Part shown: positions 10,285-44,304 of the stretch, piece by piece
Layout of the letters: each line of letters begins with the position of its first letter
Position numbering within the stretch: position 1 is the stretch's first letter
NCBI GenBank assembly: GCA_035541215.1
Contig: DATKNV010000013.1
Location: 8,315 to 72,314 of the forward strand
Reading direction: 5' to 3'
Length of the DNA stretch: 64,000 nucleotides
DNA from: Stellaceae bacterium
GTDB lineage: Bacteria; Pseudomonadota; Alphaproteobacteria; ATCC43930; CGMCC-115725
Made by a program: the position numbers and the translations under genes
Notes under the pieces: generated by a model
The model's database searches: none
Seen by the model: the letters and a program-made list of their open reading frames with translations, nothing else
What the model was told of the DNA's origin: nothing

Positions 10285-10490
10285 GCTCTTGCGTCCTCGA
10301 ACGCTCCATTCTGCGCAATTCTTGGCATATGCCTTCGCGGACACCGAAGCGGTAACGGAGACTCAATCGCCGCACCCCGATCGCGGTACGCCGCCGCGAA
10401 ACGCATGTGCGACGCGCAAGCTTGGTGATGACCACGAGATTCTGCCATGCTCAGATTGGAACTACCGAGCGAAATGGACGCTGCGAGCCC

Positions 10491-26032: not shown

Positions 26033-26041
26033 CGCCCGACT

Positions 26042-28261: not shown

Positions 28262-28370
28262 CTCGCCTATTCCTCTCGGTCGACGCGGACTAGGCCCTGC
28301 GCCGCTGGAATCGAAGAAATAGCAGCCGGTGTGGTTAAGAAGGTCTTACGCGGCCCTTCGCACGCGATCG

Positions 28371-28910: not shown

Positions 28911-28962
28911 CGCGCTGCAGCGGTCACTCATTCGAGGCTCCACCTCTCATACCCGGCAGCCG

Positions 28963-30366
28963 TCAGTAGGCCAGTTTCACGGCGAAGAGCGCTTGGAGGC
29001 GGTTATAGCCGCTGTTGGCCACGTTCGAGTTGCGCTGGCTGTAATTGAGGTCCGCAGTGGCGGTCCAGCGTCGGCTCAGCAGGTATTTGACGCCCGCATC
29101 GACGCCGAAGGTTCCATCGACGCGGGGATTGCCTTGGTAGGCGTCGTGCACGTAGCCGACGGAGCCAAGCAAGAGCAGGTTTCGCAGCAATTCGTGCTGG
29201 ACCGTCAATTGAGCGCCCGTCTCGAGCGAGCTCGACGCGGCCGGGTTCTCGAGCGTGGTCTCCGCGACGGACTCCGAGAACGACCCGATGACGGACGTAA
29301 GCGGGGTCGCATTCCAGATCAAGTTGCCGCCGAAGGAGATGCCGCTGGGCGACTTGAGAAGCGGATTCTCGTAATGCTGCCGCAGATAGCCCACATAAAC
29401 TTCGCCGGCCAGGATGCGCGTGATCTCGATCGCGGTACCGGCGTCGACCTCCCAGCCATGCGAGTTTCGCCGAATACCCTGCGAGGCAGGCGTGCAGGGG
29501 CTGGGCGTGCATTCCTGGCTGAAGTACTGCCGCTCGTTGCCGACCAGGCGAATGAAGGCGTTGTAGCCCGGCTGGATTTCGTATTGCAGGCGCGGTGCGA
29601 TCACGTACTCGTTGCGATCGCGGAATTGCTGATTGATCGTCGCGCCGGTGACGCCGTTCACGGCATTGTTGAAATCGTAGGACGTGAAGGTGGTGTCGAC
29701 ACGCAGCCCGAGCACGCCGACCATGTGCACGTAGGAGAGGTCCGCCCCCATGACCACGTATTGCGTGGGGTTCTTGCCGAAGACCGCGTTCGGAGAGGAG
29801 CGGTCCTCGTGCTGGAGCTGATAGAGCGCGTCGGCCGCGAAATACTCCCCGTTCGAGATGTCGTAGCGACCGCCCACATCGGTCGAGAAGTTGTTCACGT
29901 TCTCCGTCGTGTGGGTGGCGTATTGGCGAAAGTCGCCGCCGACGGTGGCCCCGAGCGCGTGCCTGCTCCAATCCGACTTTATGCCCACGGCCGGTATCTC
30001 GTGGACGAAGAAGTCGCTCAGCGCGCCGGTCTCGGTCGCAAAGATATTGCTGTCGTAAGTGCCCGCGAGCGAGAGGCTCGGGTTGACGATGAAGGATCCC
30101 CACCGAATTCCCAGCGGGTCGTAATCGGGCCGAGCGCGATTGAATACCGTCTCGCTCCGGGGCCCGACGGCCGCTGGTTCCAATGAATTGCCCGGCCAAG
30201 CCGGGAAGGGGCCGACTACCGGGGTCTGGGCGACGGCCATGCCGCCGGTCAGTGCGAGCGCCAACGCCCCGGCCGCGGCGACCAGGCTTCGTGCTCGTGG
30301 CCAGCCCCTTCTACGAGGATATGCGTTCCGGCTGCGCGTAAGGAAGCTGGGCCGAGTATGTGCCAT
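28963..30366 (-). CDS. outer-membrane beta-barrel protein of EPS loci (BBP2-like)
   Basis: Signal peptide (AAAGALALALTGGMAVAQ), alternating beta-strand pattern, and a C-terminal ...FAVKLAY aromatic end. Start uncertain (30366 or 30426). Confidence 0.7.
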   Translation of the reverse strand: MAHTRPSFLTRSRNAYPRRRGWPRARSLVAAAGALALALTGGMAVAQTPVVGPFPAWPGNSLEPAAVGPRSETVFNRARPDYDPLGIRWGSFIVNPSLSLAGTYDSNIFATETGALSDFFVHEIPAVGIKSDWSRHALGATVGGDFRQYATHTTENVNNFSTDVGGRYDISNGEYFAADALYQLQHEDRSSPNAVFGKNPTQYVVMGADLSYVHMVGVLGLRVDTTFTSYDFNNAVNGVTGATINQQFRDRNEYVIAPRLQYEIQPGYNAFIRLVGNERQYFSQECTPSPCTPASQGIRRNSHGWEVDAGTAIEITRILAGEVYVGYLRQHYENPLLKSPSGISFGGNLIWNATPLTSVIGSFSESVAETTLENPAASSSLETGAQLTVQHELLRNLLLLGSVGYVHDAYQGNPRVDGTFGVDAGVKYLLSRRWTATADLNYSQRNSNVANSGYNRLQALFAVKLAY

Positions 30367-30511
30367 TGCTGCCAGGCGCGCCGAGGGAGAAGGCGCAGTA
30401 GCAGCCGTCGAACTCGCAATGTGCACGATAAATGCTCCCCGACCTCTCGACCCGACAATCCTCTAACCTCATGGTTAATACTATAACAACGAGGCGGATT
30501 GACCCGGCACT

Positions 30512-31057
30512 TTAGGGAGTCGTGGTCTGGCTCGAGGGTGGATCGGTGTGCGGGGCCACCAGCGGTGCCCCGATATTCGACCGCCCGCCGGTACCGAGGT
30601 TAGGACCGGGATTGAAAGCCAACTGGGTGATCGCACTCGTGATCTGAGCGCCTGCCTCGGGAACGGCATTCTCGAGGGCGGCGACGATTCCTGGCGCAGC
30701 ATTTTCTTGCTGCCCCGGGGGTAAGGCTTCGATGACCGCGATGAGAATGGCCGCCACCTGGGTCGGCGAGGCAGAAGCCGCGGTCGCCGCGACGTCCGCG
30801 GCGTCGCCTGGGCAGCGGCTCACCGCAAGACCGGCGATATCGCCCGCGAGATCCTGATGCGCGGCGACCTGCTGCTTGACCACGGCATCGAGCGCGGCGG
30901 AATCGCAACTCGACTGAGTGATCGCGCTGACGACGTCTTGCGGAAGCGGTTGCGGCGTCTCCTGCGCCTGGGCAACTTGCGCGGCATGACTAATGGAGGC
31001 ACCGAGCATCACACCGGTACCGATGACTAAGGCCGCGAGCGCCCGGGAGCCGAACAT
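30512..31057 (-). CDS. secreted hypothetical protein (Ala-rich)
   Basis: Signal peptide ALAALVIGTGVMLGASISHAAQ. GGAGG lies 7 nt before the ATG at 31057. No family recognised. Confidence 0.55.
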   Translation of the reverse strand: MFGSRALAALVIGTGVMLGASISHAAQVAQAQETPQPLPQDVVSAITQSSCDSAALDAVVKQQVAAHQDLAGDIAGLAVSRCPGDAADVAATAASASPTQVAAILIAVIEALPPGQQENAAPGIVAALENAVPEAGAQITSAITQLAFNPGPNLGTGGRSNIGAPLVAPHTDPPSSQTTTP

Positions 31058-31160
31058 CAAGGTACCTCCGTGAGCCGGGGATCAAATCGATGGAGAAACT
31101 TTGTGCAAAAATACAGTCAAGGCGCGATCTCGCGCCATCGCCCAAAAAGGGCGTCCGAGT

Positions 31161-31187
31161 GAATATAAAACCGCCTCATGAGGGCGG
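31161..31187 (-). terminator. rho-independent terminator candidate downstream of the metallophosphoesterase gene
   Basis: The minus-strand RNA reads CCGCC-CUCAUGA-GGCGG followed by UUUUAUAUU. A second palindrome, GGCGCGA/TCGCGCC, lies at 31121..31136. Confidence 0.45.
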
Positions 31188-31257
31188 AGAAATTTACTAT
31201 GATCAAAGCCTTAACGGCATGGCCCGGCGCGGGCAGCGCTTCTGCGCTCCCGCCGCA

Positions 31258-32010
31258 TCAGAGGAACCGGATTTCATCCCCTTCGAGGACGAGGCAGGTT
31301 AGCCTGCCGGTCGCGTAGGCCCCCGTATCGATCCCAATTCGGTTCGGCAGGATTTCCGGCTCGGTCCCGAAGGAATGGCCGTGGACGATCACCTTGCCAT
31401 GGAAAGCGGTCGATTCCAGGAATTCCCTGCGGATCCATATGAGGTCGGCATCGTTTTGGCGCTCGAGCGGAACGCCTGGGCGGACCCCGGCATGCACGAA
31501 CATGTAATCGCCGACGACGATGGAACGAGGAAGGCCCGCTAGGAACCTGCGGTGCACCTCGGGGAGCCTCTGGCGGAGCCTCTGCTGTGCGGCAAGCAGT
31601 CGCTCCTCGTACCGGCCGGTCCCGGCGCTGGCGACCCCGTAGCTCAGCAGCGTCTCGAGCCCGCCAAACGCAAGCCACTCCGGACCGCAGGCAGCGTCGT
31701 CCAAGAATTGCAGGAGCATCGCCTCGTGATTGCCGAGGAGATGCGTCGCCGTGACCCCCGCCAGCGGGCGGGATAGCAGCATCTCCACGACCTCCCGGCT
31801 CGAGGGACCGCGATCGATGTAGTCGCCGAGATAGATGACGTGCTTGCGCGGCTGCGGGGCTCGACTTGCGTCTGCCTCGATCCTCGCATGCAGCGCCGCC
31901 AATAGATCCGCGCGGCCGTGCACGTCGCCGATTGCATAGACCCTGAGGTCGCGCGGCAGGGCTGCCGCTCTCCGCTCCCGCCTTCTCGATGCCGCGAAGA
32001 AGCGAAACAT
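31258..32010 (-). CDS. metallophosphoesterase (PrpA/ApaH-like Ser/Thr phosphatase family)
   Basis: GDVHGR ... GDYIDRGP ... GNHE ... VHGH motif series. ATG at 32010. Confidence 0.85.
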   Translation of the reverse strand: MFRFFAASRRRERRAAALPRDLRVYAIGDVHGRADLLAALHARIEADASRAPQPRKHVIYLGDYIDRGPSSREVVEMLLSRPLAGVTATHLLGNHEAMLLQFLDDAACGPEWLAFGGLETLLSYGVASAGTGRYEERLLAAQQRLRQRLPEVHRRFLAGLPRSIVVGDYMFVHAGVRPGVPLERQNDADLIWIRREFLESTAFHGKVIVHGHSFGTEPEILPNRIGIDTGAYATGRLTCLVLEGDEIRFL

Positions 32011-32260
32011 CGGCCTATCCCGCCCCCTGCGCGTTCCCACGACGAGCCCGCGCAGACGCCGGCCTCGGCTCGCCGCAGCCGTGCCTCGACGACACCTCCT
32101 CGCGTCGCGCATCGGGCCGAACGGAGGCGCTTCGACCCAATTGAGCGCCTCCATGAACCGGCAGCCGATTCGGCCCGTCTAATGCAATGCGCAGGGGCGG
32201 GAGGACGCAGCGCCGACCGCCCCCGTGACGCGAAGAAGAAGAAGAACCTTGAGGGGCGCG

Positions 32261-32872
32261 ATGAGGTCCGGACTTTGCCTTGCCGCCGTCGCGCTGAGCG
32301 CCATTGGCTTCGCGGTTTTCGACCCCGCCTCGGCGGGGACGCGCATGGAGACCGCCGCCCCCGCGGTGCCGCCGGCGGGGTTTCTCGGCTTCTGCCTCAA
32401 GCACCTCCCGGATTGCACGGGCAGGACGAGCGGCGGCGGAGTCGAGCTCACGCCCGAGCGGCTGCGTCTGCTGCAGTCCGTGCAGGCCCAGGTCAACGCC
32501 GCCATAGCGCCGTGCGAGGATCCCACGCACAGCTGGGACTATCCGACCGATGGGACCGGCGATTGCAACAGATACGCTCTGGAGAAACGACGAGAGCTCA
32601 TCGAGCGCGGCTGGCCCCGAGGGTCTGCGTTGCTGGCGACGGCGATCACCGAGACCGGCGAAGACCATCTGGTCGTCGTCGCCAGGACCGATCGCGGAGA
32701 CCTCGTCCTGGACAATCGCGTGGCGCCCGTCGTGGATTGGGCGGAATTGCCGTATCGGTGGATATCGATTCAAAGTGACCGGAGCCCGGTCCAGTGGCTC
32801 AGCGTCGTCAGCAGCCCGGCGGCCGCCGGCGGAACGTCGACACCGCGCCGCGCGCCATCCGCGGCTCGCTAG
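32261..32872 (+). CDS. bacterial transglutaminase-like cysteine proteinase (BTLCP, LapG-like family)
   Basis: Signal peptide, then GDCNRYA (Cys), EDHLVVV (His) and LVLDN (Asp) in BTLCP order. Confidence 0.8.
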   Translation: MRSGLCLAAVALSAIGFAVFDPASAGTRMETAAPAVPPAGFLGFCLKHLPDCTGRTSGGGVELTPERLRLLQSVQAQVNAAIAPCEDPTHSWDYPTDGTGDCNRYALEKRRELIERGWPRGSALLATAITETGEDHLVVVARTDRGDLVLDNRVAPVVDWAELPYRWISIQSDRSPVQWLSVVSSPAAAGGTSTPRRAPSAAR

Positions 32873-32901
32873 TCGCACCTCGCCGGGAACGAGCGTCGGA
32901 T

Positions 32902-33489
32902 CTAGCTGCACGCGAGCCCTCCGCTCTGCAACCCGAGGCCGATCGCGCGAAAGAGCGTTTCCGCGTGGAGTTGGCGCCCGTGAAACACGACGAGCACCAG
33001 CGCTGCCGCGAGGAGGAGTGTGCTGACGGGCAGACCGGCTCGTGACCTCGGAAAATTGCGCAAGGTCAGCACCGCGAGCGCGCCCGCCCCGATCAGGAGA
33101 CCGAAAGCCACCTCGGTGAAGGTATGGCTGCTCAGGAGGACGCGCGATGCCGCGATCCCCGCAACCCCTGCGATTGCAGCGAGGACGATCGCAAGGCGAC
33201 GCCAGCCCTCTGTCTCCGCTGCGGCGAGGAGCGCGAGGCTGCCGTAAATCAGCGTGCTCAGGCTGGTGTGGCCGCTCGGACTATGGAGCGTATGGGCCGG
33301 CGGGCAGACGAAGAACGCGACCTTCAGCAGCGCGGTCCCACCCATGCAGAATCCCGCGGCCATCGCCCAGCACAGCGCGTCCTGCCTCGTGCGCGCAAAG
33401 CGCAGCCACAACAGGACCAAGACCGTCAGCGGAAGGAGCACCGCCAGATCGCCGAAATCCGTGAGTGCTATGAGGGCGTCTTGGGCCAT
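32902..33489 (-). CDS. PAP2-family membrane phosphatase
   Basis: Polytopic, with PSGH and SRVLLSSHTFTEV motifs (acid phosphatase motifs 2 and 3). Confidence 0.75.
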   Translation of the reverse strand: MAQDALIALTDFGDLAVLLPLTVLVLLWLRFARTRQDALCWAMAAGFCMGGTALLKVAFFVCPPAHTLHSPSGHTSLSTLIYGSLALLAAAETEGWRRLAIVLAAIAGVAGIAASRVLLSSHTFTEVAFGLLIGAGALAVLTLRNFPRSRAGLPVSTLLLAAALVLVVFHGRQLHAETLFRAIGLGLQSGGLACS

Positions 33490-33511
33490 GATGTCCCGCG
33501 CGCTTCGGGTC

Positions 33512-34780
33512 TCAGAGTGGATTACCCTGCGCTCGCAGGCCCGCCTGCGCCGCCTTGCCGCTCAACGAGGCGAGCCGCGCCTCCAGCTCCTGCAGGATCG
33601 TCTCGGAGTGCATCGACTTCCTTGCGAGCCGTGCCGCAGCCTCCCCCATCGCCCGGCGCCGTCCCGGGTCCGCCGCCAAATCGCGGATCGCAGCCGCGAG
33701 CGGCACGGGATCCTCGGGCGGAGTGACGACACCGGCCTCGACGAGCGCGCGGTCGAGCTCCGACTCGCGCGGAGCCATCGCGATGACCGGCCGGCCCGAG
33801 GCCAGCATGGCCAGGAGCTTGGAGGGCATGACGAGATCGCTCGCCTCGCGCCGCTGCGGCAGCAGGTGAATATCCGCGACGTTGAGGAACTCGTTGAACC
33901 GCGCCGCCGGCTGCAGCGGCAGGAACCTGACGTTCCCGAGCTCTCGCGCGGAGGCTTCGAGCTCCGCGCGCGCGGGCCCCGCGCCCGCCAATAGGAAGAG
34001 CGGTGAGCTCTCGCCGCTGCCCACGAGCGACCGCGCCGCCGCTATCACGTGCTCGAGCCCTTGCTTGCGACCCATGCTTCCGGAATAGAGGACACAGCAG
34101 CGATCCTCGGGAATGCCGAGCTCGCGCCGGAGCGCCACCGGGCACGAGAGCGGCTTGAAGGCGTCGGTGTCGACCCAGTTCGGGAACAGGAGGAGACGCT
34201 CGCGCGGCACGCCCTTGCGCTCGATCGCCTCGAGCATGCGCGAGGAGATCGTGGAGACGCGATCGAAGCGTCGCATCAGCCAGCGCTCGAGCCGGCGCCC
34301 GAGCGCGACGGCCGGGCGATTGCGGATGAATCCGAGCTCGAAGGCGGCATCGAGCTCGAGGTCGAGCACGTGCAGCCAGGCCTTCGCGCGCATGAGACGC
34401 GCAGCGAGCCACGCCGCGGGGGCCGAGAACTGCGTCGGGGCCATCACCATGACGACGTCGGCCCGGCCGCGCGGAATCTGCGCGAGGGCGGCGGGGATGC
34501 AGGAAAGGCCGAAGGACGAAAGATGCAGGATTCGCCGGAGCCCGGTCTGCCGGCGCGGCACGTAGAGCGGACAGCGGACGACGCGACAACCCTCCCAGGT
34601 CTCGGAACGCCAGGTCCAGCCGGCCCATCCCGGCCGCTTCCATTCGGGATAATAGGGGCGCGTCGTGACGACGGTGACGTCGTGGCCGCGCCGAGCGAGC
34701 CAAGCGGCCATCTCGCCGGTGTACTTGCCGATCCCCGTGAGCTCGGGCGCGAAGTTCAAGCCGATGATCAGCAGACGCAT
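33512..34780 (-). CDS. WcaI-like glycosyltransferase family 4
   Basis: MRLLIIGLNFAPELTGIGKYTGEM N-terminus is typical of WcaI-type GTs. ATG at 34780; the rest of the 1000-aa ORF is out-of-frame shadow. Confidence 0.85.
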   Translation of the reverse strand: MRLLIIGLNFAPELTGIGKYTGEMAAWLARRGHDVTVVTTRPYYPEWKRPGWAGWTWRSETWEGCRVVRCPLYVPRRQTGLRRILHLSSFGLSCIPAALAQIPRGRADVVMVMAPTQFSAPAAWLAARLMRAKAWLHVLDLELDAAFELGFIRNRPAVALGRRLERWLMRRFDRVSTISSRMLEAIERKGVPRERLLLFPNWVDTDAFKPLSCPVALRRELGIPEDRCCVLYSGSMGRKQGLEHVIAAARSLVGSGESSPLFLLAGAGPARAELEASARELGNVRFLPLQPAARFNEFLNVADIHLLPQRREASDLVMPSKLLAMLASGRPVIAMAPRESELDRALVEAGVVTPPEDPVPLAAAIRDLAADPGRRRAMGEAAARLARKSMHSETILQELEARLASLSGKAAQAGLRAQGNPL

Positions 34781-34818
34781 GCTCGCAATGCTCCCCAGCC
34801 CCTGTTCGAGCGCGGGAC

Positions 34819-36387
34819 TCAGTATGCGTTCTGCTGCCGCAGGACGACGATCGCGGTCATGAAGAGGACCTTTAGATCGAGCCAGATCGACCAGTTGTCG
34901 ATGTACCAGAGATCGTATTCGACGCGCTCCCGCGCGCGCTGTGGCGTGTCGATCTCGCCGCGCAAGCCGTGCACCTGAGCCCAGCCGGTCACACCCGGCT
35001 TCACGCGATGCCGCTGGAAATATTCGCCGACGGCCTCGTGATAGAGCCGGTCGCCGGCCTTCATCGCCATTACGTGCGGCCGCGGCCCCACCAGCGACAT
35101 GTCGCCGAGCATGACGTTGAGGAGCTGGGGAAGCTCGTCGATGCTCAGGCGGCGGAGAATGCGGCCCACCCGCGTCACCCGGAGATCGCCGGGCACCGTC
35201 CGATTGGCGCCGCTCGCGTCGGTCTCGCCCTCGCGCATCGTCCGGAACTTGAAGACGCGGATGACGTTGTTGTTGAAGCCGAAGCGCTCCTGAACGAAGA
35301 ACGCTGGCCCCTTGCTGTCGAGCCGGATCGCCACCGCGACGAGCGCCATCAGCGGCGCGGTCAAGGCCAGGAGGAAGGCGGCGAGGACCTTGTCCTCGAC
35401 CCATTTCGCGACGCCGCTCCAGTGCTTGAGCGGGCGGTCGACGATCTCGATCATCCGCACCGACGCGGTCTCGCTGATGCCGCGCATCGGGAAGACGCCC
35501 GCGATGGGATCGAGGCTGAGGCGGAGATCCACCGGGAGCGGGCGAAGCTTGGCGACGAGCTCGCCGATCCGCGCCTCCGCCCGGAGTGGCAGCGCGATGA
35601 CGACCTCGTCGATCAGCGACTGACGCACCTGCGCGACGAGATCGTCGGTGGTTCCGACGACTGGATAGCCCGCGACTTCCGACGGCACGCGCGTCATCCG
35701 GTCGTCGAAGATGCCGGCGATCCTGATCTGGGCGTCGTTGACCGATCGAATCTTGGCGACGATTTGCTGACCCAGCTCGCCCGCTCCGACGACGGCGATC
35801 GCGCGCGTGAGCCGGCCCGTCCGGGTCCAGTAGTCGATCATCAGGCTCGCGCCGATTCGCACCATGGTGAGCGCGGCGAAGCAGACCAACGCAAAGAGCA
35901 GGGTCCAGACGCGGGAGTAGTTCTGCACCACCCGCGCGGCGAAGCCCACGCTCGTCAGCACCGAGAGCGTGCCGCCCCAGACCAATGCGACCCTGCCGAC
36001 TTGCCAGGCCAAAGGGGAGAGACGCTGAATCCTGTAGCCGCCGAACCTCCGATGGGCATAGACGAAGCCGCCCGCCGCGAGAACGATGGCGACCAAATAA
36101 AGCTCGTAGAACGTGACGCCGGAGCCGAGCGCCTGGACGAAGAGCTCGAGCGAGCCGAGACCGCCGATGAGGATCGCCAGCGCGTCCGCGACTTGAACCG
36201 TCCCGCAGATCACCTCCGCCGAGACCGATGCCCGCGCGGCGCTGCGCGCCGGGCTCGCCGCCGTTTCCGCGCTTCCCGTGGCCGGCGTCGCCTGCGTTCG
36301 GCGGCCGCGGACGCGCGGCGGCGCGGCGAGGCCGAACTCGCGCTCGCTCCATTGATGATCGCCCGGGGGTTGGGGGATCGCGGTCAT
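34819..36387 (-). CDS. polyprenyl-phosphate glycosyl-1-phosphate transferase (WcaJ/ExoY-type priming enzyme)
   Basis: N-terminal TM helices, central Rossmann-like region, and the C-terminal bacterial sugar transferase domain (RPLKHW...ERFGFNN..F.V.KFRTM...DELPQL.NV..GDMSLVGPRP). Confidence 0.9.
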   Translation of the reverse strand: MTAIPQPPGDHQWSEREFGLAAPPRVRGRRTQATPATGSAETAASPARSAARASVSAEVICGTVQVADALAILIGGLGSLELFVQALGSGVTFYELYLVAIVLAAGGFVYAHRRFGGYRIQRLSPLAWQVGRVALVWGGTLSVLTSVGFAARVVQNYSRVWTLLFALVCFAALTMVRIGASLMIDYWTRTGRLTRAIAVVGAGELGQQIVAKIRSVNDAQIRIAGIFDDRMTRVPSEVAGYPVVGTTDDLVAQVRQSLIDEVVIALPLRAEARIGELVAKLRPLPVDLRLSLDPIAGVFPMRGISETASVRMIEIVDRPLKHWSGVAKWVEDKVLAAFLLALTAPLMALVAVAIRLDSKGPAFFVQERFGFNNNVIRVFKFRTMREGETDASGANRTVPGDLRVTRVGRILRRLSIDELPQLLNVMLGDMSLVGPRPHVMAMKAGDRLYHEAVGEYFQRHRVKPGVTGWAQVHGLRGEIDTPQRARERVEYDLWYIDNWSIWLDLKVLFMTAIVVLRQQNAY

Positions 36388-36992
36388 CGACGTGGGCTCG
36401 ATTGGGCTCCCCGATGCGTGCGCCAAAGCGACGCGTCTTGCCGGCCGCCCCCCAACTCGCCGACGGAGGAACCGGCTTCGAGCCAACGGAGGTTCCGGCG
36501 AAGCGTCGCCGCACAGATTGCCCACTATTGTGGAAAATTCTTTAAACGGCCTATCCGTACAAAAGAGGCAGATGCCCGCACAGCACGCGGCGCGGGCCTT
36601 GAGCTCGTCCAAAGGAAGTGGGAGCCGGCCCTCCCCGGTGTCGATCCGGCCGTCGCAGATCCCTTCAATTGCGCGATTTTCAGCGTGAATTTCCTGAGAG
36701 TGGCGCGGACCGGTGTCGGTCTTCTGGACCCCGCGAGGTCGGGATCGTGGTTAAGGGACTAGTCAGAAATGGAGAGCTATTGCCCATGCGCCGGATCGTC
36801 GCATCTCCTCGAAATGATGGGCTCCGGTCGCGCCGCGTCCGATGCGCTCCTCTACGGATTTCCGAAGGAGCGCTTCGCGAAGCCGCGCAAGAGCCTTCGC
36901 GGGCTCGCGGCACGGGGGGGTGCGGCTTCTCGCGGGCCGGCCGAAAGACCTCGTCCGGGCCATCACGAGCTTCTTCGGCCTTTGATACGCGC

Positions 36993-38894
36993 TCAGCTCA
37001 GCTCCACCGTCTTCACGTCGAAGAGCGCAACCCAGTCCTCGACGTCCGCGATCATCATGGCGCCGGCCCCGTAGATCTCCTCCACCAGCCGCTCCGTGCT
37101 CAGCGGGCCCGCGAGCGGCAGGTGAGAAAGCCGCTCCGCGATCTGCCGAAGGCGCCGGTGCAGGCGCTCGGAATTCTTCGCGACGATCTCGAATTCCGCC
37201 TGGGCGCGGAGCGCAAAGGCCGCGGCCGAGAGCGCGGGCAGCGCCACTCCGAGGACGGCGAGCGCCTCGATCGCGCGATGCGCGACGGAGCACGCGGATT
37301 GATCGGCGGCGAAGACGAGGAGCGCGATCTTCGTGAGCGCGGCGAGGAAGGTGCCGGCGAAGCAGAGGAGACCGAGCGTTCCTAGTCGGCGCGCGACGGT
37401 GCCGGCGCGCGATGCGTTGAGCTCGTGAAACTCGATCTGCTCCGCGAGCAGCCCATCGACGTAGCGCCCGCGCACCGAGCGCAGGTACTCTGCCTCGTAG
37501 CGGGCGGCGGGGACGCCGATCTCGCGCACCGCGGCGCTGAAGTACCAAAGCACCCAATCCTGCCGCCGCGCGGTGCGGGCCCCGTGCGTCGAGAGGATCG
37601 CCGCGCGGTTGATCGGCAGCGTCCGCCCCAGCAGGACCAGATAGGCCATCTGCCGCATGAGTTCCGCGAGGATGCGATAATCGATCCAGCGGTCGTGCCA
37701 GCGCCGGATGCGGTCCATGGCGACGAGCCCGCCGATCGCCGCGAGCGAGGCGATCTCGAGCAGCACGAAGGGCCAGCCGGGATCCACGGCGAAGGCGAGC
37801 CCGGCGCAAGTGAGCGCCGCCGCGCCCAGGACGAAGAGCGCGAGGAAGGTCGACCGGTGACAGTGCGAGTAGAAGAGCGCAACCGCGTCGGCGCGATCGC
37901 GGATGCGCTCATAGGCCGCGATCTTCTCGAGCTGCGGTGGCGTCAGCGCCTGGCGCACGGTGTAGGAGGGCGCGACGGCCGCGTGCCGCTGCGAGCCGCC
38001 GCGTGGGAGCGTGAAGAGCCTGCGGAAGCGCTCGAAGGCGAGCATCGGCCCCTTCGAGGGCCGCACCCGCTCGTCGTAGAACTGCTGCAGCGGCGAGCCC
38101 GCCTGGTAAGGAAGACGCCGCAGGCGCCCCCTGAGGCCGCGCCAGATGCCGACCGCCACGGTCTCGTCCTCGGGCAGCGCCGCAGGCGGCTCCAGCAAGG
38201 CCTTCAGGTGATCGGCCAGGTCGTCGAGCGCATCCGCGGTCGACGGCATCGGAAGCTCCAGCGCATCGCGCTCGACCAGCAGCCGCATCGCCGCGGGGGC
38301 GTCGGCCGGGATCCAAAGCACGGGAACGCCGGTCCGCAACGCGAAGGTCACGATGTCGGCGGTGCCGCCGAGCCCGGCCGGGCGGTCGCGCTGCCAGACC
38401 GCGATCACGACGTCGGCGCTCCGGACGACGAAGCGGCCCACCGCGTAATAGCTTTGGTCGCCCGTCGCCTTTCCGCGGCCGCCGTCGAGGGCGATCGTCC
38501 CCTCCTCCGCATCGGCACGCGCCAGCAGGCGCCGGAATTCCGTCTTGCTCTCCTCCGTCTCGAAATCCTTCTCGTATTCCGGCTGCGCGAAGGGCAGCGG
38601 CGCGAGCAGCCGGTATCCGAGCCGCGAGGCCTCCTCGGCGGCGAGGCGGTCGGCCCCCTCCGCAAGCGGCGAGATCATCCGCAGCAATGGCGGCTCCTCG
38701 CGATAGGCTCTGCTCTCGCGGTTCACTGCGGCGACCGCGTTGGCGGCATCGCGGATCGCCGCGAGCGCAACGGCGATCTGCGACCTTATTGCCGCGCCGT
38801 TCTCGGCGTAGGCCGTGAAGATGTCGCGATGGCCCGTGATCCCCACGCGGATCGCGATGCGCGGCCGCGGGTCCGGGCCGGCTCCTGCGCTCAA
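36993..38894 (-). CDS. SLOG-domain protein fused to two SLATT-like 2TM modules
   Basis: aa ~12-200 show a SLOG/YpsA-like pattern (IRVGITGHRD ... SPLAEGADRLAAEEA ... ADVVIAVW...GGTADIV). aa ~320-425 and ~445-600 each have two TM helices followed by helical motifs (W..W.DYR.LAE.MR; Q.EFHE...). Proposed TTG start at 38894 overlaps the upstream stop (TTGA); start uncertain. Confidence 0.7.
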   Translation of the reverse strand: MSAGAGPDPRPRIAIRVGITGHRDIFTAYAENGAAIRSQIAVALAAIRDAANAVAAVNRESRAYREEPPLLRMISPLAEGADRLAAEEASRLGYRLLAPLPFAQPEYEKDFETEESKTEFRRLLARADAEEGTIALDGGRGKATGDQSYYAVGRFVVRSADVVIAVWQRDRPAGLGGTADIVTFALRTGVPVLWIPADAPAAMRLLVERDALELPMPSTADALDDLADHLKALLEPPAALPEDETVAVGIWRGLRGRLRRLPYQAGSPLQQFYDERVRPSKGPMLAFERFRRLFTLPRGGSQRHAAVAPSYTVRQALTPPQLEKIAAYERIRDRADAVALFYSHCHRSTFLALFVLGAAALTCAGLAFAVDPGWPFVLLEIASLAAIGGLVAMDRIRRWHDRWIDYRILAELMRQMAYLVLLGRTLPINRAAILSTHGARTARRQDWVLWYFSAAVREIGVPAARYEAEYLRSVRGRYVDGLLAEQIEFHELNASRAGTVARRLGTLGLLCFAGTFLAALTKIALLVFAADQSACSVAHRAIEALAVLGVALPALSAAAFALRAQAEFEIVAKNSERLHRRLRQIAERLSHLPLAGPLSTERLVEEIYGAGAMMIADVEDWVALFDVKTVELS

Positions 38895-41284
38895 GGAGAA
38901 TTTTCCGACAGAAGCGCGAAAACGGCGATGCGCCCGCCGCCGCCGACGGCGCCGACCTTCCCCGCGAATTCCGTCTCGCCCTCGTAGCCCGAGAGCAGCA
39001 GCTCGCAATGGAACGGCTCGGTCGCGTAGACGCCGCGGCGGGAGACCGCGGGCCGGCGCGGCGCCAGCATCGCCTGCTGGAGCGCGAGGCTCGCCGCGCG
39101 CGGCTCCGTCACCGGAGCGAGATCGCAGGTGACGCAGGCCTCCGCCTTTTGCGCGAGACGCGCGGCGAAGGCTGCCGCCTCGAGCGCGCTCGCGACGAGC
39201 CAGACCCGGCATCCGCCCTCTAGCGTCACGGGCCTCCCCAGCGCATTGGCCGCCGCGTCGCCCGCCGCACCGGCATCGCCGTCGAGACACACGAAGGCCG
39301 GCGGAACGGGCCCCGCGGGGCCTCGCTGCTCCGCGAGCCGCGCGGGATCGACGGTATCGGGCCCGGCGACGATCCGTTGTCCGGCCGCGCGCCAGGTTCG
39401 CATCGCCGCCCCCGCGACCGAGGTGCCGCCGCCGTCCCAGCCGAGGCAGAGCTGGATGCTCTCGCTCTCGAGCTCGCGTGCCCGCTGGATCGCCTGTCCC
39501 ATTGCGAGACGCGAGGTCAGATAGCGGTCGTCGCCGGTTCCGGCCGACGTCTCCTGGCCGAAAGCGGCGATGCGGGCCGCGCGGTCGAGACAGGCGGCGC
39601 TGCGCCGCGCCCATTCGGCATGTCCCGGCAGCTTCACGCGGCCGGATTGCGCGATCACCCGGTCCGGCAGCACCGCGTTGAATTCGGCACCCGCTTCGAT
39701 CAGCGTCTCCGCGGCGACGATCTCCGCGGGATTGGCGAGGCCGCCGAAGATCCAGGCGGGCTCCGCGCGCCCCGCAAGCGCACGCAGACCCGCCGCGAAT
39801 CTCCCCTCGTCGAAGGGCTCCGAGAATCCGCCATCGGCGATGAAATGCGCGACCGGCGGCTGACGGAGCGCATCGAGGATGCGGCGCTCCGGCACCTCCA
39901 GGAGGCCGCAGAGCATGCGCATTTGCCGCCGCGTGCTCGCGATCTTGCCGCGATCGGCGTCGTTGCACTGGCGCGCGCGCTCGAGGAGCTGTGCGGCGCG
40001 CTCGACCTTGCCGAGGACGAGCGCCGCCTCGGCCGCGCTCGCGATCTCGTAATAGGAGCCGGGATCGTCGCCCAAATGGCGGAGGACCTCCGTCGCGACC
40101 TCGCGCGCACGCGCGCGGTCACCCGCCGCGATGAACATCGTGGCGGCGTTGATGGCGGCGTAATAGCCGCCGAACTTCTTGTGGACGGCCTCGTAGCATT
40201 CCGCCGACCCAAGCGCCAAGGCGCGCTTGGCGGAGCGGTCGCGCTCCTGAGCCCAAAGGTCCTTCCTCAGCCGCGCCTCGAGCGCCGCCGCGTCCTCGTC
40301 CGCCGCATTCTCCGCGAGGTCGAACTCCCGGAGCATCCGCCAGGCCTCGTGCACGGCGCCGGAACGCGCGCTCGCGAGCACCGCGCGATGCCGGATCAGA
40401 GGATCGCGCGCGAGCGAGGGCCGGCGCAGCGCCTCGAGCGCGAGCTCCCAGGCCTCGAGGTTGCAGCCGCGGGCGAGCGCGAGGTCGATCTGGTCGAGCC
40501 AGGTGGCGGCGTTCCAGCCGCCGCGGCTCCCGCGCCGCATCTTCGCGAAGATGCGGAGGCGGTCGAGCTGAAGGATGGTGAGGCGCTGCTGCTTGTCGAC
40601 GGCGATGATGCCGCCGTCCTGCCAGAGGTTGAGCGCCTCGAGGACGCTCCGGCGGTCGACCCCGAGGGCGAGCGCGAGCTTGCCGTGGGTGAGGCGCTCG
40701 GGGATCTGAATTTGCGCGCCCTCGCGCACGCCCAGATGCTCCGCGCGGCGCAGCAGATAGCGCGCGAGGCGGATCTCCACGAGCCCCGCGAAGGCGAGCC
40801 CGTCGATGAGCGAGAGCAGCTCCGCCATCTCGCCCGCGAGCTTGGCGCCGACGGCCTGCGCCACCGCCGGCTCCTCCGCGACGAAGGCGCGGAACTCCGC
40901 GGCGGGGATCTCGATGATCGCGGAATTGGTGACGGAGACGGCGCGCAGCGAGGCGAGCGCGCCCGGCGCGCCCTCGCGGGCGCTCGCCATCGTCATCGCC
41001 TCGCCGAAACTGTCGCCGCGGCCGAGGAGCGCCACCGAGAGGCTCTGATCGCCCTCCTCGGAGGTCGCGAAGATCTCGGAGACGCCGTGCTCGACGACGC
41101 AGACGATGCGCTGGGCGCGCTCGGTGGTCGCGATGACCTCGCCCGCGGCATAGGCGCGGAGCCGCGAGGCCTGCGCGAGCGCGTCGATCCGCTCGGGCGC
41201 CGCCGGCTTGAAGACGCGCGAGGCCCGCATCACCGCCGCCATGAAGCCGCGGTCGATGCTGGGCGCGCGCGTGTTTGCCGGCAT
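38891..41284 (-). CDS. Crp-like cNMP-binding + HTH regulator fused to TPR (DUF4071-like), SLOG-like and degenerate cyclase-homology regions
   Basis: aa ~25-135: cNMP-binding beta-barrel (LLGRGDSFGE). aa ~170-235: Crp-type HTH (LTHGKLALALGVDRRSVLEALN). YYAAINAATM TPR block. GGLANPAEIVAAE...LGWDGGGT is SLOG-like. The C-terminus aligns with the cyclase of the upstream gene, but the metal-Asp motifs are altered (FVCLDGDAG; LEGGCRVWLV). The ATG overlaps the upstream stop (TGATG). Confidence 0.75.
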   Translation of the reverse strand: MPANTRAPSIDRGFMAAVMRASRVFKPAAPERIDALAQASRLRAYAAGEVIATTERAQRIVCVVEHGVSEIFATSEEGDQSLSVALLGRGDSFGEAMTMASAREGAPGALASLRAVSVTNSAIIEIPAAEFRAFVAEEPAVAQAVGAKLAGEMAELLSLIDGLAFAGLVEIRLARYLLRRAEHLGVREGAQIQIPERLTHGKLALALGVDRRSVLEALNLWQDGGIIAVDKQQRLTILQLDRLRIFAKMRRGSRGGWNAATWLDQIDLALARGCNLEAWELALEALRRPSLARDPLIRHRAVLASARSGAVHEAWRMLREFDLAENAADEDAAALEARLRKDLWAQERDRSAKRALALGSAECYEAVHKKFGGYYAAINAATMFIAAGDRARAREVATEVLRHLGDDPGSYYEIASAAEAALVLGKVERAAQLLERARQCNDADRGKIASTRRQMRMLCGLLEVPERRILDALRQPPVAHFIADGGFSEPFDEGRFAAGLRALAGRAEPAWIFGGLANPAEIVAAETLIEAGAEFNAVLPDRVIAQSGRVKLPGHAEWARRSAACLDRAARIAAFGQETSAGTGDDRYLTSRLAMGQAIQRARELESESIQLCLGWDGGGTSVAGAAMRTWRAAGQRIVAGPDTVDPARLAEQRGPAGPVPPAFVCLDGDAGAAGDAAANALGRPVTLEGGCRVWLVASALEAAAFAARLAQKAEACVTCDLAPVTEPRAASLALQQAMLAPRRPAVSRRGVYATEPFHCELLLSGYEGETEFAGKVGAVGGGGRIAVFALLSENSP

Positions 41285-43056
41285 CACTCGCCCGGCCGCG
41301 AGCGGCGCAGCGAGTACATGCGGCACGCGCCGTATCCCTTGGCCATCGGCTGAATCCCCACGTACTCGCAGCGGAACTCGCCGCCGGCCTCGCAATAGAG
41401 CGTCGCCGCGAATTGCTCCGTGACGTAGATCGCGCCCACTTCGGTCACGGGCTCGATGCGCGCGGTCCGGATGATCTCGGTGCCGAAGAACTTGTTGCGC
41501 TTGGTGACGCGGTCGTAGCCGCGGCTCACCGGCCCCACATGAGCGCCGACGCGAAGCCCCTGCACCGTCGGCAGCCCCACCCGCTTCAGCCGCTCCGGCC
41601 GCATCGTCTCCTGGAGCGCAAGGCAGCAGCGTGCCGCGGTCGAGACGCCGGAGACCACGAGATAGATGCCGTCCCCCGCGGTCTCCGCATATTCGACGGC
41701 GGCGCCGAAGGGCTCGAGCGCGTCGCCGAAGCCGCCGATGACGTGATCCAGAAAGCCCGCCATGTCGCGCTCGGCGAGCGTGCTGAAGCCCTTGACGTCG
41801 CCGAAGACGAGCGCGCGCTTGACGCGCACCGGAGGCGGCGGGTCCTGGGGCGGTGCCCCGACGCGGCCGGGCTTGCGCGCGAGGAGCGCTGCCGGCGTTA
41901 AGATGAGCGCGGACCGCTGCGCCTCGATCGCTATCCGGCGCGCCGGCGCGTCGAGTGCCTCCGCGCGCAGCAAGGTGAGCCCCATCATCTGCTCGAGGCA
42001 AAGCGAGAGCGAGGTCGGCTCATCCGCCTCGCCGGACTCGGTGACGACGCTCACGGAGCTCCTGCGGTCGAGGCAGCGTTGGTAGGGCTCTTTCCACCGC
42101 GGCGCCGCCGCCTCCAGCGCCTCGAGGCAGGTCTTCTCGCTCGCCGACAGCACCAGGTTGAGCTGCGCCTTCCTGGCGATGAGCGCCTCGGCGAGGCAGA
42201 TGTCCAGGGGATCGAGGAGGGTCACGTAGACGGCGGCGCCCTCGGCCCGTGGCAGCACGCGATCGAGCTCCCGCTCGAGATTGGCCCGCGCCGCGTCGCT
42301 CCCGTCGAAAGCCGGCGCGGCCGCTCCGCGATCCCGGAGGAAGCACGCGACCTCGGGCTCGCCCAGCGCGTCGATCAGCTCGCGGCCCAGCCCCTTTGCC
42401 TTGCTGAGCCAGCGCATCTGCTTGCGCGTCGCGGCGATCTCGTCTTGCGCGGCCTTGGGCAATTTTGCCGCGCGCCACAGCGTCGCGGCCGCCGCAGCAA
42501 TGTCGTCGAGCAGGACCAGCGCCTCGCCTTGGGTCGCGAGCGTCCAGTAATTCTCGGCCTCGCCCCGCGCGAGGCGCAGCGCCTCGCCCGCCATCGTCTT
42601 GGAGCGCTCGACGTCTCCCGCGAGGAACCACATGCTCGCGGCGTTGATGGCGGGGTAATAGCTGTCGCCGCCGCGCCGGAACACCGCCTCGTAGGCGGCC
42701 GCGGACGCCCTGAGGAGCCGGGTCTGCTCCTCGCCCGAGGCCTCGACGGCGCGGTCCTTGAAGAGGCGCGCCTCCAACGCCCCGAATTCGTTGACGAGAT
42801 GGCCGCTCGCGATCACCGCGATCCTGCCCTTCGCCTCGAGGTCGGCGAGCCGCGCCTGCGCGCGATTGGTGGCGCCCGCGCGCGCCAGCGCGAGCAGCGC
42901 CTGGTATTCGAGCTCCATCGCCTCCGGATGCTCGGCGAGGCCGCGCCGGGCCAAATCGAACATCTTGAAGTAGTCGGCCTCTTTCTTCCGGACCTCGTTG
43001 ACCCGCTGCAGCCAGGTCTCGACGGGCGTCTTCTCGGCCGTGCTGCCCGTGTCCAT
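41284..43056 (-). CDS. TPR (DUF4071-like) + class III adenylate/guanylate-type nucleotide cyclase
   Basis: SYYPAINAASMWF TPR block. The C-terminal cyclase domain has VFGDVKGFS and ETAGDGIYLVV (two metal-binding Asp motifs) and GTEIIRTARIE. ATG at 43056 lies 10 nt after the upstream stop. Confidence 0.8.
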   Translation of the reverse strand: MDTGSTAEKTPVETWLQRVNEVRKKEADYFKMFDLARRGLAEHPEAMELEYQALLALARAGATNRAQARLADLEAKGRIAVIASGHLVNEFGALEARLFKDRAVEASGEEQTRLLRASAAAYEAVFRRGGDSYYPAINAASMWFLAGDVERSKTMAGEALRLARGEAENYWTLATQGEALVLLDDIAAAAATLWRAAKLPKAAQDEIAATRKQMRWLSKAKGLGRELIDALGEPEVACFLRDRGAAAPAFDGSDAARANLERELDRVLPRAEGAAVYVTLLDPLDICLAEALIARKAQLNLVLSASEKTCLEALEAAAPRWKEPYQRCLDRRSSVSVVTESGEADEPTSLSLCLEQMMGLTLLRAEALDAPARRIAIEAQRSALILTPAALLARKPGRVGAPPQDPPPPVRVKRALVFGDVKGFSTLAERDMAGFLDHVIGGFGDALEPFGAAVEYAETAGDGIYLVVSGVSTAARCCLALQETMRPERLKRVGLPTVQGLRVGAHVGPVSRGYDRVTKRNKFFGTEIIRTARIEPVTEVGAIYVTEQFAATLYCEAGGEFRCEYVGIQPMAKGYGACRMYSLRRSRPGE

Positions 43057-43066: not shown

Positions 43067-44206
43067 TCAGTGCTGCGCTGTAGCCCAGGCCGGAAACGGG
43101 TCGGGGAGCTGCGCCCAGCCCTTGGGCCCGAGCGCGAGCTCCGCCTCGCTGAGCGCGCAGGCGTCGAGCGCGCCTCGAATCTCGCCGGCGTCGAAGCCAT
43201 GCCCGATGAACACGAATTCCTGCTGGCGATCTCCGAAGGGCTCCCGCCAGCGCCGCTCGATCGCCGCGGCCGCGGCCGTGGGCCAGCGGTCCCGCGGCAT
43301 GCTCGCCCACCAGAGTCCGACGGGATGAGCGACGCTCAGCGTTCCGCAGCGCGACCACGCGCAGACGAGATCAGGACGCGTCGCGAGCCAGAATTGCCCG
43401 ACCGCGCGATAGACGCCGTCGAAATCGCGGCGCATGAGCTCGGCCAAGCGCGCGCCGCTGAACGGGGTCCGCGTCCGGTGGATGAGAGCCTCGAGCCCTA
43501 GCGTCGCAAATTCCGGCGGCCGATGGCCCGCCTGCAGCATCTGCCAGGCGGGCACGCCGTCGTGCCCCGGCGGAAGCGCCGCAAGGTCGCGTGCGAGCTC
43601 CGTCGGATCGGTGTGGAGGACGATCTCGGCGCCGCCGTTCAAGGATCGCAGCATCCTGCGCAACCGCAGCAGCTCATCCGCGCCGAGCTCCCGCGCGTCG
43701 ACGACGAGGCGGTCCGCATACTCGATCGACGCGAAGAGCGCCGCGCGGGCCATGGCGTGCGACTGCCGGTGATCGTGGGCGTGATCGTGATGCTCGTGGC
43801 CGTGGTCGTGGCCGCAAGCCTCGCCGTGGTGATGATGGCGGTGATGATCGTGCTCATCTCCGCAGCAGGCCTGCGCGGACGGCCCGGCCGTCGCGCCCTC
43901 GGCGAGAGCCGCGAAGAGCGCCGCGGGCTCGATCGCAGCGATGGCGCGCGTCCTTCCGGCGGCGTGCAGCTCCGCGAGGCCCGGCGGCATCTGGTCCGGC
44001 GGCATCTGCGCGAGCGCGGGACCGGAGGGGCCGCCGGTTACGTCGAGCAAGAGGTCCGGGCCCTCCGACGCGGCCGGGAGCCGCGGCAGCGCGCCCCCGC
44101 TCGCCTCGGGCCAATCGAGAAGGCGCGGGCCGGTCCCGCGCACGAGTTCCGTCCGGCAACGCTCGCGCAACGCGTCGCCGACGAAATAAATCAAGCCCAG
44201 CGACAT
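43067..44206 (-). CDS. CobW C-terminal-domain (COG0523-like) protein with a His-rich tract; no Walker A seen
   Basis: CobW_C-like C-terminus (RTPFSGARL...YRAVGQFWLATRP...QEFVFIGHGFD) and His-rich CCGDEHDHHRHHHHGEACGHDHGHEHHDHAHDH. No GxxGxGK[ST] appears in the N-terminus. ATG at 44206 is preceded by GGGAGGG. Confidence 0.7.
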   Translation of the reverse strand: MSLGLIYFVGDALRERCRTELVRGTGPRLLDWPEASGGALPRLPAASEGPDLLLDVTGGPSGPALAQMPPDQMPPGLAELHAAGRTRAIAAIEPAALFAALAEGATAGPSAQACCGDEHDHHRHHHHGEACGHDHGHEHHDHAHDHRQSHAMARAALFASIEYADRLVVDARELGADELLRLRRMLRSLNGGAEIVLHTDPTELARDLAALPPGHDGVPAWQMLQAGHRPPEFATLGLEALIHRTRTPFSGARLAELMRRDFDGVYRAVGQFWLATRPDLVCAWSRCGTLSVAHPVGLWWASMPRDRWPTAAAAAIERRWREPFGDRQQEFVFIGHGFDAGEIRGALDACALSEAELALGPKGWAQLPDPFPAWATAQH

Positions 44207-44288
44207 TCTCGCCCTCCCTCGGTCTTTGTAGCCGATCCGTCGCACGGCCGCATCTGCGATCGAGATGGCGTCGCGCCGGGGCTGGCGC

Positions 44289-44304
44289 TGTGAATCGCAT
44301 CACA
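44289..44304. promoter_or_regulatory. perfect Crp-type palindrome TGTGAATCGCATCACA in the divergent intergenic region
   Basis: Read directly. It matches TGTGA-N6-TCACA at 10/10 specified bases. The centre lies ~84 bp upstream of the first small-protein ATG and ~90 bp upstream of the CobW_C-like ATG on the other strand. Confidence 0.55.

Follow-up and report, generated by a model that had tools for sequence, protein, structure and literature searches.

Why should two diverged copies of one and the same scaffold stand side by side in a genome, one of them with the look of a working cyclase and the other with a decayed cyclase domain joined to a regulator of the Crp type? This is the question raised by a locus in the 64,000-nucleotide stretch of contig DATKNV010000013.1 (Stellaceae bacterium, assembly GCA_035541215.1), the whole of which is referred to here as the window. 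Two of its genes, A and B, code for proteins in which TPR-S repeats, a SLOG-type domain and a class III cyclase homology domain follow one another, and the next gene, C, codes for a putative membrane protein with a SLOG domain of its own. The answer that we favour, with somewhat more confidence than doubt, is that the three genes may form a signalling module in which A would be the producer of a nucleotide signal, B its receptor and regulator, and C a membrane effector. The features of genes A and B, all of which lie on the minus strand, are the following.

41284..43056, minus strand: gene A, TPR-S / degenerate SLOG / class III cyclase (Pfam and homologues)
42382..43017, minus strand: A residues 14-225, TPR-S helical repeats (Pfam TPR-S at 30-142; aligns with B 261-470)
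41872..42369, minus strand: A residues 230-395, SLOG-type domain that has lost its ligand loop (hhalign to the SLOG-fold domain of B)
41287..41844, minus strand: A residues 405-590, cyclase homology domain (alignment to 3et6, 3mr7 and 5o5k)
38891..41284, minus strand: gene B, cyclic-nucleotide-binding / Crp helix-turn-helix / TPR-S / SLOG / pseudo-cyclase (Pfam and model)
40874..41158, minus strand: B residues 43-137, cyclic-nucleotide-binding domain (Pfam PF00027)
40553..40771, minus strand: B residues 172-244, Crp-type helix-turn-helix (Pfam PF13545)
39875..40510, minus strand: B residues 259-470, TPR-S helical repeats (Pfam TPR-S at 279-383; BLASTP to A and to the family protein P0060)
39350..39862, minus strand: B residues 475-645, SLOG-fold domain with a GGGT loop (AlphaFold2 model and structural match)
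38900..39307, minus strand: B residues 660-795, degenerate cyclase homology domain, or pseudo-cyclase (structural match, MAFFT alignment)

A preliminary description of this DNA had taken the two proteins for paralogues on the basis of collinear blocks, all of which were found in the two minus-strand open reading frames (ORFs), i.e., YYPAINAASMWF in A with YYAAINAATMFI in B, LDPLDICLAEALIARKAQLNLVL with LANPAEIVAAETLIEAGAEFNAVL, and the C-terminal pair IYVTEQF..CEYVG and VYATEPF..TEFAG. The strings that set the two proteins apart are likewise present, with VFGDVKGFS, AGDGIYLV and GTEIIRTARIE in A, and FVCLDGDAG, LEGGCRVWLV and WDGGGT in B. The relationship itself was borne out by a pairwise comparison (BLASTP E 7e-27, 32% identity between A 14-370 and B 261-607) and by a profile comparison of the middle domains (hhalign probability 99.3%, E 3.4e-20). 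By sequence, A and B are true paralogues, far above chance, and the TPR / SLOG-like / cyclase layout that they had been said to share is supported, as is the contrast drawn between a catalytic-looking A and a degenerate B with a Crp module, on which the residues and the Pfam matches agree.

The C-terminal domains are more distant, and BLASTP of A against B gave no alignment of them. With hhalign, residues 640-797 of B match the cyclase domain of the A family over its last 43 columns only (probability 12%, P 0.0025), and with BLASTP residues 651-797 match an intact relative, encoded in the genome G001 (see below), over the last 46 residues (E 6e-5). On a hidden Markov model (HMM) of the family cyclase built from 81 domains, the C-termini of all five B-like proteins score between 6.6 and 16.0 bits, with B itself at 10.3 bits, and the maximum reached by 1000 shuffles of the B C-terminus is 5.2 bits. 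The C-terminal resemblance of A and B is, in short, weak by sequence and backed by a predicted fold.

On the side of A, the evidence points to an enzyme. Pfam recognizes both TPR-S (45.3 bits, cut-off 27.6) and Guanylate_cyc (40.1 bits, cut-off 21.9), and the cyclase domain matches the sequences of 3et6, 3mr7 and 5o5k in the PDB. When aligned to solved cyclases, A has both metal-binding aspartates in place (D420 and D462) as well as the transition-state arginine (R533), and Ile529 falls on the transition-state Asn of 3et6 and 3mr7. The replacement of this Asn had been pointed out earlier as a peculiarity of A, and both the replacement and the presence of the Arg hold, while the peculiarity does not, since just one of the 81 family cyclase domains has an Asn at this position, which makes its absence a trait of the whole family. 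The position is occupied in these domains by S (34), I (23), T (15), V (5) or, once each, N, A, G and D, and is followed by R in 67 of the 81; the first metal Asp is conserved in 80/81, the second in 80/81 and the catalytic Arg in 79/81. As for the choice of base, the canonical pair of residues is Lys with Asp or Thr for ATP, and Glu with Cys, Ser or Gly for GTP. A has the non-canonical combination of Glu458 at the Lys/Glu position and Lys522 at the Asp/Cys position, which characterises the subfamily of A and is found in 23 of the 81 domains, with E+R in five, the canonical K+T in four, and N with a small or polar residue in most of the others. The Pfam match, both metal Asp and the Arg make A look like a catalytically competent class III cyclase.

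The tail of B presents a different picture. No match was obtained in a Pfam scan of its isolated C-terminal 198 residues at E<=10, and Guanylate_cyc at E<=0.05 matches none of the five B-like proteins. In the MAFFT alignment, the first metal Asp is kept (D668, in 5/5 B-like proteins), the second is replaced by Gly in all five, 17 residues are deleted after the first strand, and a further 21 are deleted across the FxGxxVxRTA segment; R743 may correspond to the catalytic Arg, with an uncertain placement. An AlphaFold2 model of B 471-797, based on a 39-sequence alignment that includes true cyclases, has a predicted local distance difference test score (pLDDT) of 86 and a predicted template modelling score (pTM) of 0.90. 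In this model, residues 660-795 (190-325 of the model) are most similar to the beta chains of soluble guanylate cyclase (sGC), which are the best matches at Z 12-13 (Z 13.2 over 128 residues with sGC beta), and they also match Rv1264, Ma1120 and Rv1900c at Z 11-12.5. The assignment of a cyclase fold to the tail thus combines a model informed by cyclases, the collinearity with A, and faint signals in the sequence. A helix comes straight after strand 4 in the model, so that the hairpin arm of the cyclase domain seems to be missing. Judged from its residues, the cyclase domain of B appears to be dead and would no longer make nucleotide.

What B has in exchange for catalysis lies at its N-terminal end, where Pfam places a cNMP_binding domain (33.6 bits, cut-off 27.5) and a HTH_Crp_2 domain (40.2 bits, cut-off 27) ahead of TPR-S (29.8 bits, above the cut-off). 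The phosphate-binding cassette FGE...LRA, as read from the sequence, is invariant in all five B-like proteins. The recognition positions of the helix-turn-helix read R-R-S-V-L-E, which departs from the R-E-x-x-x-R/K motif of CRP (given as R-E-x-x-x-R in excerpts of PMC10187061), and Crp genes linked to cyclases at other loci have T-R-S-I-I-T at these positions. The earlier proposal of a pseudo-cyclase that serves as a receptor is right in regard to the degenerate cyclase, and is better recast in regard to the receptor, given that this role would most plausibly reside in the cyclic-nucleotide-binding domain rather than in the pseudo-cyclase.

The domain that lies between the repeats and the cyclase brings the third gene into the argument.

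36993..38894, minus strand: gene C, SLOG and SLATT-like membrane protein (sub-threshold SLATT_1/DUF4231, hhalign SLOG)

In the model, residues 475-645 of B (5-175 of the model) match YpsA best (2nx2; Z 15.5, root-mean-square deviation 2.8 over 153 residues), with further matches to DprA (Z 13.1), ShosA, a molybdenum cofactor carrier protein, LOG and the N-terminus of TRPM2. The fold was modelled for B only, and A and C were tied to it through hhalign, in which the N-terminal domain of C gave a probability of 97.9% (E 3.4e-13) against the SLOG of the cyclase family. On these predictions, the middle domains of A and B and the N-terminus of C are members of the SLOG superfamily. Pfam at E<=10 has no match for the middle domains of A or B or for the N-terminal 298 residues of C, and the curated Pfam SLOG models match none of 39 members of the cyclase family. 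By comparison, an HMM of the C-type SLOG detects the internal domain in 164 of 237 family proteins, four of which (P0079, P0081, P0085 and P0262) have an additional C-type SLOG at the N-terminus, and all four are without the internal SLOG ligand motif.

The three domains differ in what they have kept of this motif. In SLOG domains of the LOG type, the ligand loop is a glycine-rich GT..(D/E) at the N-terminus of a helix. The 80 loci kept for context can be divided into 12 E-type loci, which are like A (ET[AS]GD, no WDG..GT..D), and 68 N-type loci (N[TS]WGD), in which the middle domain has the motifs GHR, G.LA.GADI..AE, VLPF and WDG..GT..D..W. The WDG..GT..D motif is present in 54/68 N-type loci and in 0/12 E-type loci. 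A has lost both GHR and the WDG..GT..D..W loop. B has also lost GHR and retains GWDGGGT at the strand-to-helix turn without the acidic residue, so that the SLOG-like motif ascribed to it is there and is intact only in part, i.e., GHR and the acid after GT are gone. In C, all motifs are kept (GITGHR, LAEGADRLAAE, LPF and WQ..GGTAD). The remainder of C (residues 332-633) is SLATT-like at sub-threshold scores, with 34.5 bits for the NCBIfam model SLATT_1 (cut-off 41) and 20.5 for Pfam DUF4231 (cut-off 24.7), and among 50 members of the C family DUF4231 is matched in 24, SLATT_1 in six and YpsA in one (E 0.0036).

Constraint on the domains was gauged by the ratios of non-synonymous to synonymous substitution (dN/dS), which were calculated by the Nei-Gojobori method for one genome pair, the window and the locus L001 from a Stellaceae metagenome-assembled genome (MAG). 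In A, the cyclase domain is the most constrained (0.053), followed by TPR-S (0.24) and the degenerate SLOG (0.28). In B, the helix-turn-helix stands at 0.052, the cyclic-nucleotide-binding domain at 0.23, and TPR-S and SLOG at 0.12 each, and the pseudo-cyclase is the least constrained domain (0.45 as a whole, 0.58 in its first 84 codons and 0.23 in its last 51). Constraint falls on catalysis in A, and on the regulator and sensor parts in B.

The origin of B can be approached through the family to which the pair belongs. A has 55 close homologues of approximately 590 residues, and its family comprises 757 representative proteins at E<=1e-30, with at least 559 loci in species-representative genomes of the Alpha- and Gammaproteobacteria, the Actinomycetota, the Nitrospinota and other groups. 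The idea that B is a recent tandem duplicate of A was ruled out, given that B lies nearer to N-type members and outside the clade of A. Its TPR-S/SLOG region is 38% identical to that of the N-type protein P0060 (E 4e-48), versus 32% to that of A, and in a FastTree phylogeny of this region (86 rows) the B-like proteins form a clade of their own (support 100%) on a branch of length 1.55, outside the E-type clade that holds A (27 rows, 99% support). The full architecture of B was found in only four clusters, which are 79-93% identical, and at L001. In G001, a separate Crp gene ends 22 bases before a gene for a 565-residue TPR-S/SLOG/cyclase protein which keeps both Asp and the Arg, and this gene pair is, on its arrangement, an unfused form of B. 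The metagenomic protein P0291 (968 residues) unites Trans_reg_C and BTAD domains of the SARP type, a cyclic-nucleotide-binding domain, TPR-S, SLOG and an intact cyclase (224.8 bits on the family HMM), and its architecture is that of an independent fusion of DNA-binding and nucleotide-binding parts to the cyclase scaffold.

Neighbouring genes differ between the two types of locus. A SLOG gene adjoins the cyclase at 5/12 E-type loci (L001, L002, L009, L010 and L012) and 0/68 N-type loci, and a Crp-type gene is near the cyclase at 4/12 and 1/68, respectively. At L002, the SLOG gene that follows the cyclase (9778-10464) is split into two ORFs of 106 and 113 residues and has no SLATT part, either because the gene may be broken or because the MAG may be misassembled there. 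At L006 (5912-6346) and L008 (5857-6375), a stand-alone cyclic-nucleotide-binding protein of 145-173 residues is encoded just upstream of the E-type cyclase, between the gene of an ATP-binding cassette (ABC) transporter and a divergent Crp gene. Three further proteins (P0072, P0073 and P0082) have a RyR domain at the N-terminus of the TPR-S/SLOG(/cyclase) scaffold.

Given this evidence, the favoured mechanism is that of a cyclic-nucleotide signalling module built on three diverged YpsA-like SLOG copies. Its producer would be A, a TPR-S-regulated class III cyclase. An ancient TPR-S/SLOG/cyclase paralogue may have been fused to its former operon partner, a Crp-type factor that binds cyclic nucleotides, to give rise to B, and the cyclase domain of B would have decayed after this fusion. 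As receptor and regulator, B would bind the nucleotide through its cyclic-nucleotide-binding domain and control transcription, with its TPR-S and SLOG domains as a second input, and C would join an intact SLOG sensor to a two-helix membrane effector of the SLATT type. With an apparently live A beside an apparently dead, Crp-fused B, the two proteins probably work together as a small signalling circuit. We infer the activity of A and the identity of its product, the sensing of that product by B, the binding of B to DNA and the action of C at the membrane from the sequences.

The arrangement of the genes is consistent with their joint expression. Gene A proper extends over 41287-43056 (590 residues), with a start at 43056 backed by homologues that open with MDT...; B extends over 38894-41284 (797 residues), and C over 36996-38894 (633 residues). 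The TGA stop of A and the ATG of B share one base, the TTG start codon of C overlaps the stop of B, and a fourth gene (43070-44245 without its stop) ends 11 bases upstream of A.

43067..44245, minus strand: protein resembling the C-terminal half of ZigA/CobW, with a His-rich stretch (CobW_C and ZigA models)

These overlaps and the 11-base gap make the four genes look like one operon, so that A, B, C and the upstream ZigA-like gene probably form a single transcription unit on the minus strand. The limits of the genes were set by homology and hand-picked ORFs, given that crude callers based on the GC content at third codon positions (GC3) mis-assigned strands in loci of high GC. Two antisense ORFs on the plus strand, 37425-38984 over C and 39377-41350 over B, outscore the real genes in GC3 minus GC2, and are probably an artefact of the high GC, since homology favours the genes on the minus strand. 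The A-B-C order is retained in full only at L001 among the 80 loci, which is also the only one where a ZigA/CobW-like gene adjoins an A-like gene. The upstream protein scores 56.2 bits with Pfam CobW_C and 143 bits with the NCBIfam model ZigA (cut-off 600), the latter over profile positions 166-390 only; its His-rich stretch is long, and the P-loop was not seen. Directly downstream of C lies a large exopolysaccharide cluster (25376-36612), which encodes a Wzz/GNVR tyrosine-kinase, a Poly_export protein, a porin of the beta-barrel type, a glycosyltransferase (GT4) and a priming transferase (Bac_transf).

On the other side, small-protein genes that diverge from the operon begin at approximately 44381 and form part of a cassette on the opposite strand (44.3-49.2 kb), with a CRP-type site in the intergenic region.

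44289..44304, strand not applicable: perfect TGTGA-N6-TCACA palindrome of the CRP type (divergent intergenic region)

One-mismatch copies of this palindrome are found at 44638 and 45147, and the three sites cluster ahead of the small-protein genes. In the window as a whole, matches with up to two mismatches are not in excess (8 found and 8.2 expected). The palindromes were discarded as a conserved feature of such loci, since they are present only in the window and at L001.

Several observations weigh against a module of producer, receptor and effector. The absence of the Asn and the odd Glu/Lys pair could signal a low or altered activity of A. Of the three positions of the recognition helix that contact bases, B shares only one with CRP. 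Three further genes of the genome encode CRP-like proteins with RE...K or RE...R helices, which, by these recognition residues, would suit the TGTGA-N6-TCACA sites better than B. The A-B-C arrangement and the Crp fusion were seen in one narrow lineage only, the dN/dS figures were obtained for one genome pair only, and at E<=0.1 no PADLOC family matches any of the three proteins. As for the fold of the tail, its confident prediction as a cyclase depends on the true cyclases in the alignment. A control model of B 656-797 made with the five B-like sequences only was not confident (pLDDT 50), and its structural matches, all at E>0.6, were to generic folds of the ferredoxin-like kind (PII-like, RRM), a result that neither bears out the cyclase fold nor argues against it.

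Among the other explanations, the one that survives best, as a possible one to which we give clearly less credit, is that the operon is the regulatory arm of a small-peptide cassette, made up of genes for four-Cys proteins, an ABC exporter, a GAF protein and an S8 subtilase, in a developmental or cell-cell circuit and not a module on its own. The TPR-S region of A would respond to a peptide or to the state of its processing, and the nucleotide would tune how strongly the cassette is expressed. A subtilase homologous to that of the window is near 6/12 E-type and 3/68 N-type cyclases, for the most part immediately upstream of the E-type cyclase and on its strand; it ends no more than about 240 bases before the start of the cyclase at L003, L004, L007, L011 and L012. 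At these five loci (L003 6511-9734, L004 4411-9689, L007 7095-9663, L011 5477-9725 and L012 4709-9735), an ABC exporter/GAF/S8 subtilase cassette precedes the E-type cyclase, which looks from this order like the final gene of the cassette. Homologues of the ABC, GAF and small-protein genes occur together with the subtilase at L001, L004 and L012. In the window, the cassette and the operon diverge with CRP-type palindromes between them, an arrangement that recalls Rhodospirillum centenum, where, according to passages of PMC4681086, the operator of the CRP homologue precedes cyclase-subunit genes and cgrA, with a divergent small ORF. This view is weakened by the restriction of the palindromes to the window and L001, with none near the cassette at other E-type loci, and by the recognition helix of B, which is not CRP-like; the binding of peptides by TPR-S, which it also calls for, is itself conjecture. 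Upstream at L011, a RiPP (ribosomally synthesized and post-translationally modified peptide) enzyme of the MbnB/TglH/ChrH type is also encoded.

A role in biological conflict, against phages or kin, appears unlikely to us. An invader would activate A, the product would open a SLATT pore in C and so arrest the cell, and B would be an accessory regulator. Pfam names TPR-S a sensor repeat, the C family has DUF4231/SLATT matches, and nSTAND1 NTPase genes flank the E-type cyclase at L003, L004, L006 and L009, out of 11 loci with scanned neighbours. SLATT is predicted to be a nucleotide-responsive pore-forming conflict effector, as stated in a passage of PMC7159879 that cites Burroughs 2015. On the other hand, the lack of a PADLOC match leaves a defence role with no direct support, the window has exopolysaccharide and metabolic genes in place of a defence island around the operon, most family members stand alone, and C scores below the curated SLATT cut-offs. 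The nSTAND1 genes, which are large (L003 9750-17017, L004 9744-13106, L006 9725-13165 and L009 11578-16197), carry DUF4062, TPR or WD40 parts in some cases.

It is less probable still that, as the preliminary description suggested, A and B form a heterodimer through the cyclase and the pseudo-cyclase, in which B would either regulate A or complete one asymmetric active site. Class III cyclase domains work as dimers, and degenerate partners are known among them, which would suit two adjacent genes with an overlapping stop and start, the cyclase fold predicted for the tail of B, its D668 and possibly R743, and the fair constraint on its last 50 residues (dN/dS 0.23). However, A holds all the residues for a two-site homodimer, so complementation by B is not required. 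In addition, the 21-residue deletion of B covers the place of the hairpin arm and of the helix with the Asn, the model has a helix straight after strand 4, there is next to no constraint on the first two-thirds of the pseudo-domain (0.58), and 68 of the 80 family loci are without any paralogue.

With a similarly low expectation, the E-type enzymes may be regarded as the cytoplasmic read-out of a peptide system. The cue for TPR-S would be the small four-Cys peptides themselves or the way in which they are processed by the GAF/subtilase/ABC cassette, next to which these enzymes are conserved. The site without Asn and with the Glu/Lys pair would yield a product that is possibly neither cyclic AMP nor cyclic GMP, and in this lineage both B and C would be its readers, the Crp-fused paralogue for transcription and the SLOG-gated SLATT protein at its side. 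If true, this would be a new circuit of bacterial peptide-to-nucleotide signalling or kin conflict. Finally, the least probable reading, that the TPR-S/SLOG/pseudo-cyclase tail is a functionless remnant of a plain Crp-type regulator that lies beside A by accident, may draw on the relaxed pseudo-cyclase (dN/dS 0.45) and the narrow lineage of the fusion, and is contradicted by TPR-S and SLOG domains that are more constrained in B (0.12) than in A (0.24 and 0.28), and by the independent recurrence of the link between Crp and cyclase in G001 and P0291.

Under the favoured reading of producer, receptor and effector, the locus would be a clear natural case of complementary decay after divergence, in which A holds on to catalysis at the cost of the sensor loop, and B holds on to the sensor and acquires a Crp module at the cost of catalysis. 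Large and present in several phyla, the TPR-S/SLOG/cyclase family is uncharacterised in the libraries searched; Pfam does not detect its SLOG domain, and the Asn that is standard in class III is absent from its active site. The set of three genes would be tractable for establishing the nucleotide of the family, the ligands of the embedded SLOG domains, and the response of SLATT proteins to the products of cyclases. A literature search for TPR-S with SLOG, SLATT or cyclase, the scope of which excludes Burroughs 2015, Marden 2011, Roychowdhury 2015 and Gomelsky 2011, gave nothing relevant.

Among known systems, the cyclic GMP/CgrA system of R. centenum likewise has a CRP-type cyclic-nucleotide receptor encoded together with genes for cyclase subunits, which are described as non-catalytic in passages of PMC4681086 and PMC10187061. 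According to the same passages, it also has a perfect TGTGA-N6-TCACA operator in a divergent region, with a small ORF beside it. The CRP homologue of this system stands by itself as a protein and has a recognition helix of the canonical kind, unlike B, which is fused and non-canonical.

YpsA (2nx2), the best structural match of the middle domain of B, is a stand-alone protein, whereas the SLOG of this locus is embedded between TPR-S and the cyclase domain, where the Pfam SLOG models do not see it. Pycsar likewise combines a cyclase of the class III type with a membrane effector, but the effector here is SLOG with SLATT, and neither A nor C is matched by a family of the PADLOC library, which we take to include Pycsar (PycC) models; Pycsar is not known to include any TPR-S, SLOG or Crp part. 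The unusual specificity residues of A raise the question of whether its product may be other than a purine nucleotide.

The C1/C2 domains of mammalian adenylate cyclase and the alpha/beta chains of sGC likewise have a catalytic domain accompanied by a paralogue of the same fold that is without catalytic residues. Their halves complement one active site, however, whereas A has the full set and B is without the second metal Asp and the segment of the arm and Asn, and, unlike C1/C2 or sGC, both proteins carry TPR-S and SLOG, and B a Crp module. In the nucleotide-centric SLOG/SLATT systems, reportedly predicted by Burroughs et al. in 2015 through comparative genomics, a nucleotide generator, SLOG sensors and a two-helix SLATT membrane protein are likewise encoded together. 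The present locus would differ from these systems in that the part of the generator falls to a class III cyclase that contains a SLOG domain and TPR-S repeats, and in that it is accompanied by a pseudo-cyclase paralogue fused to a Crp module.

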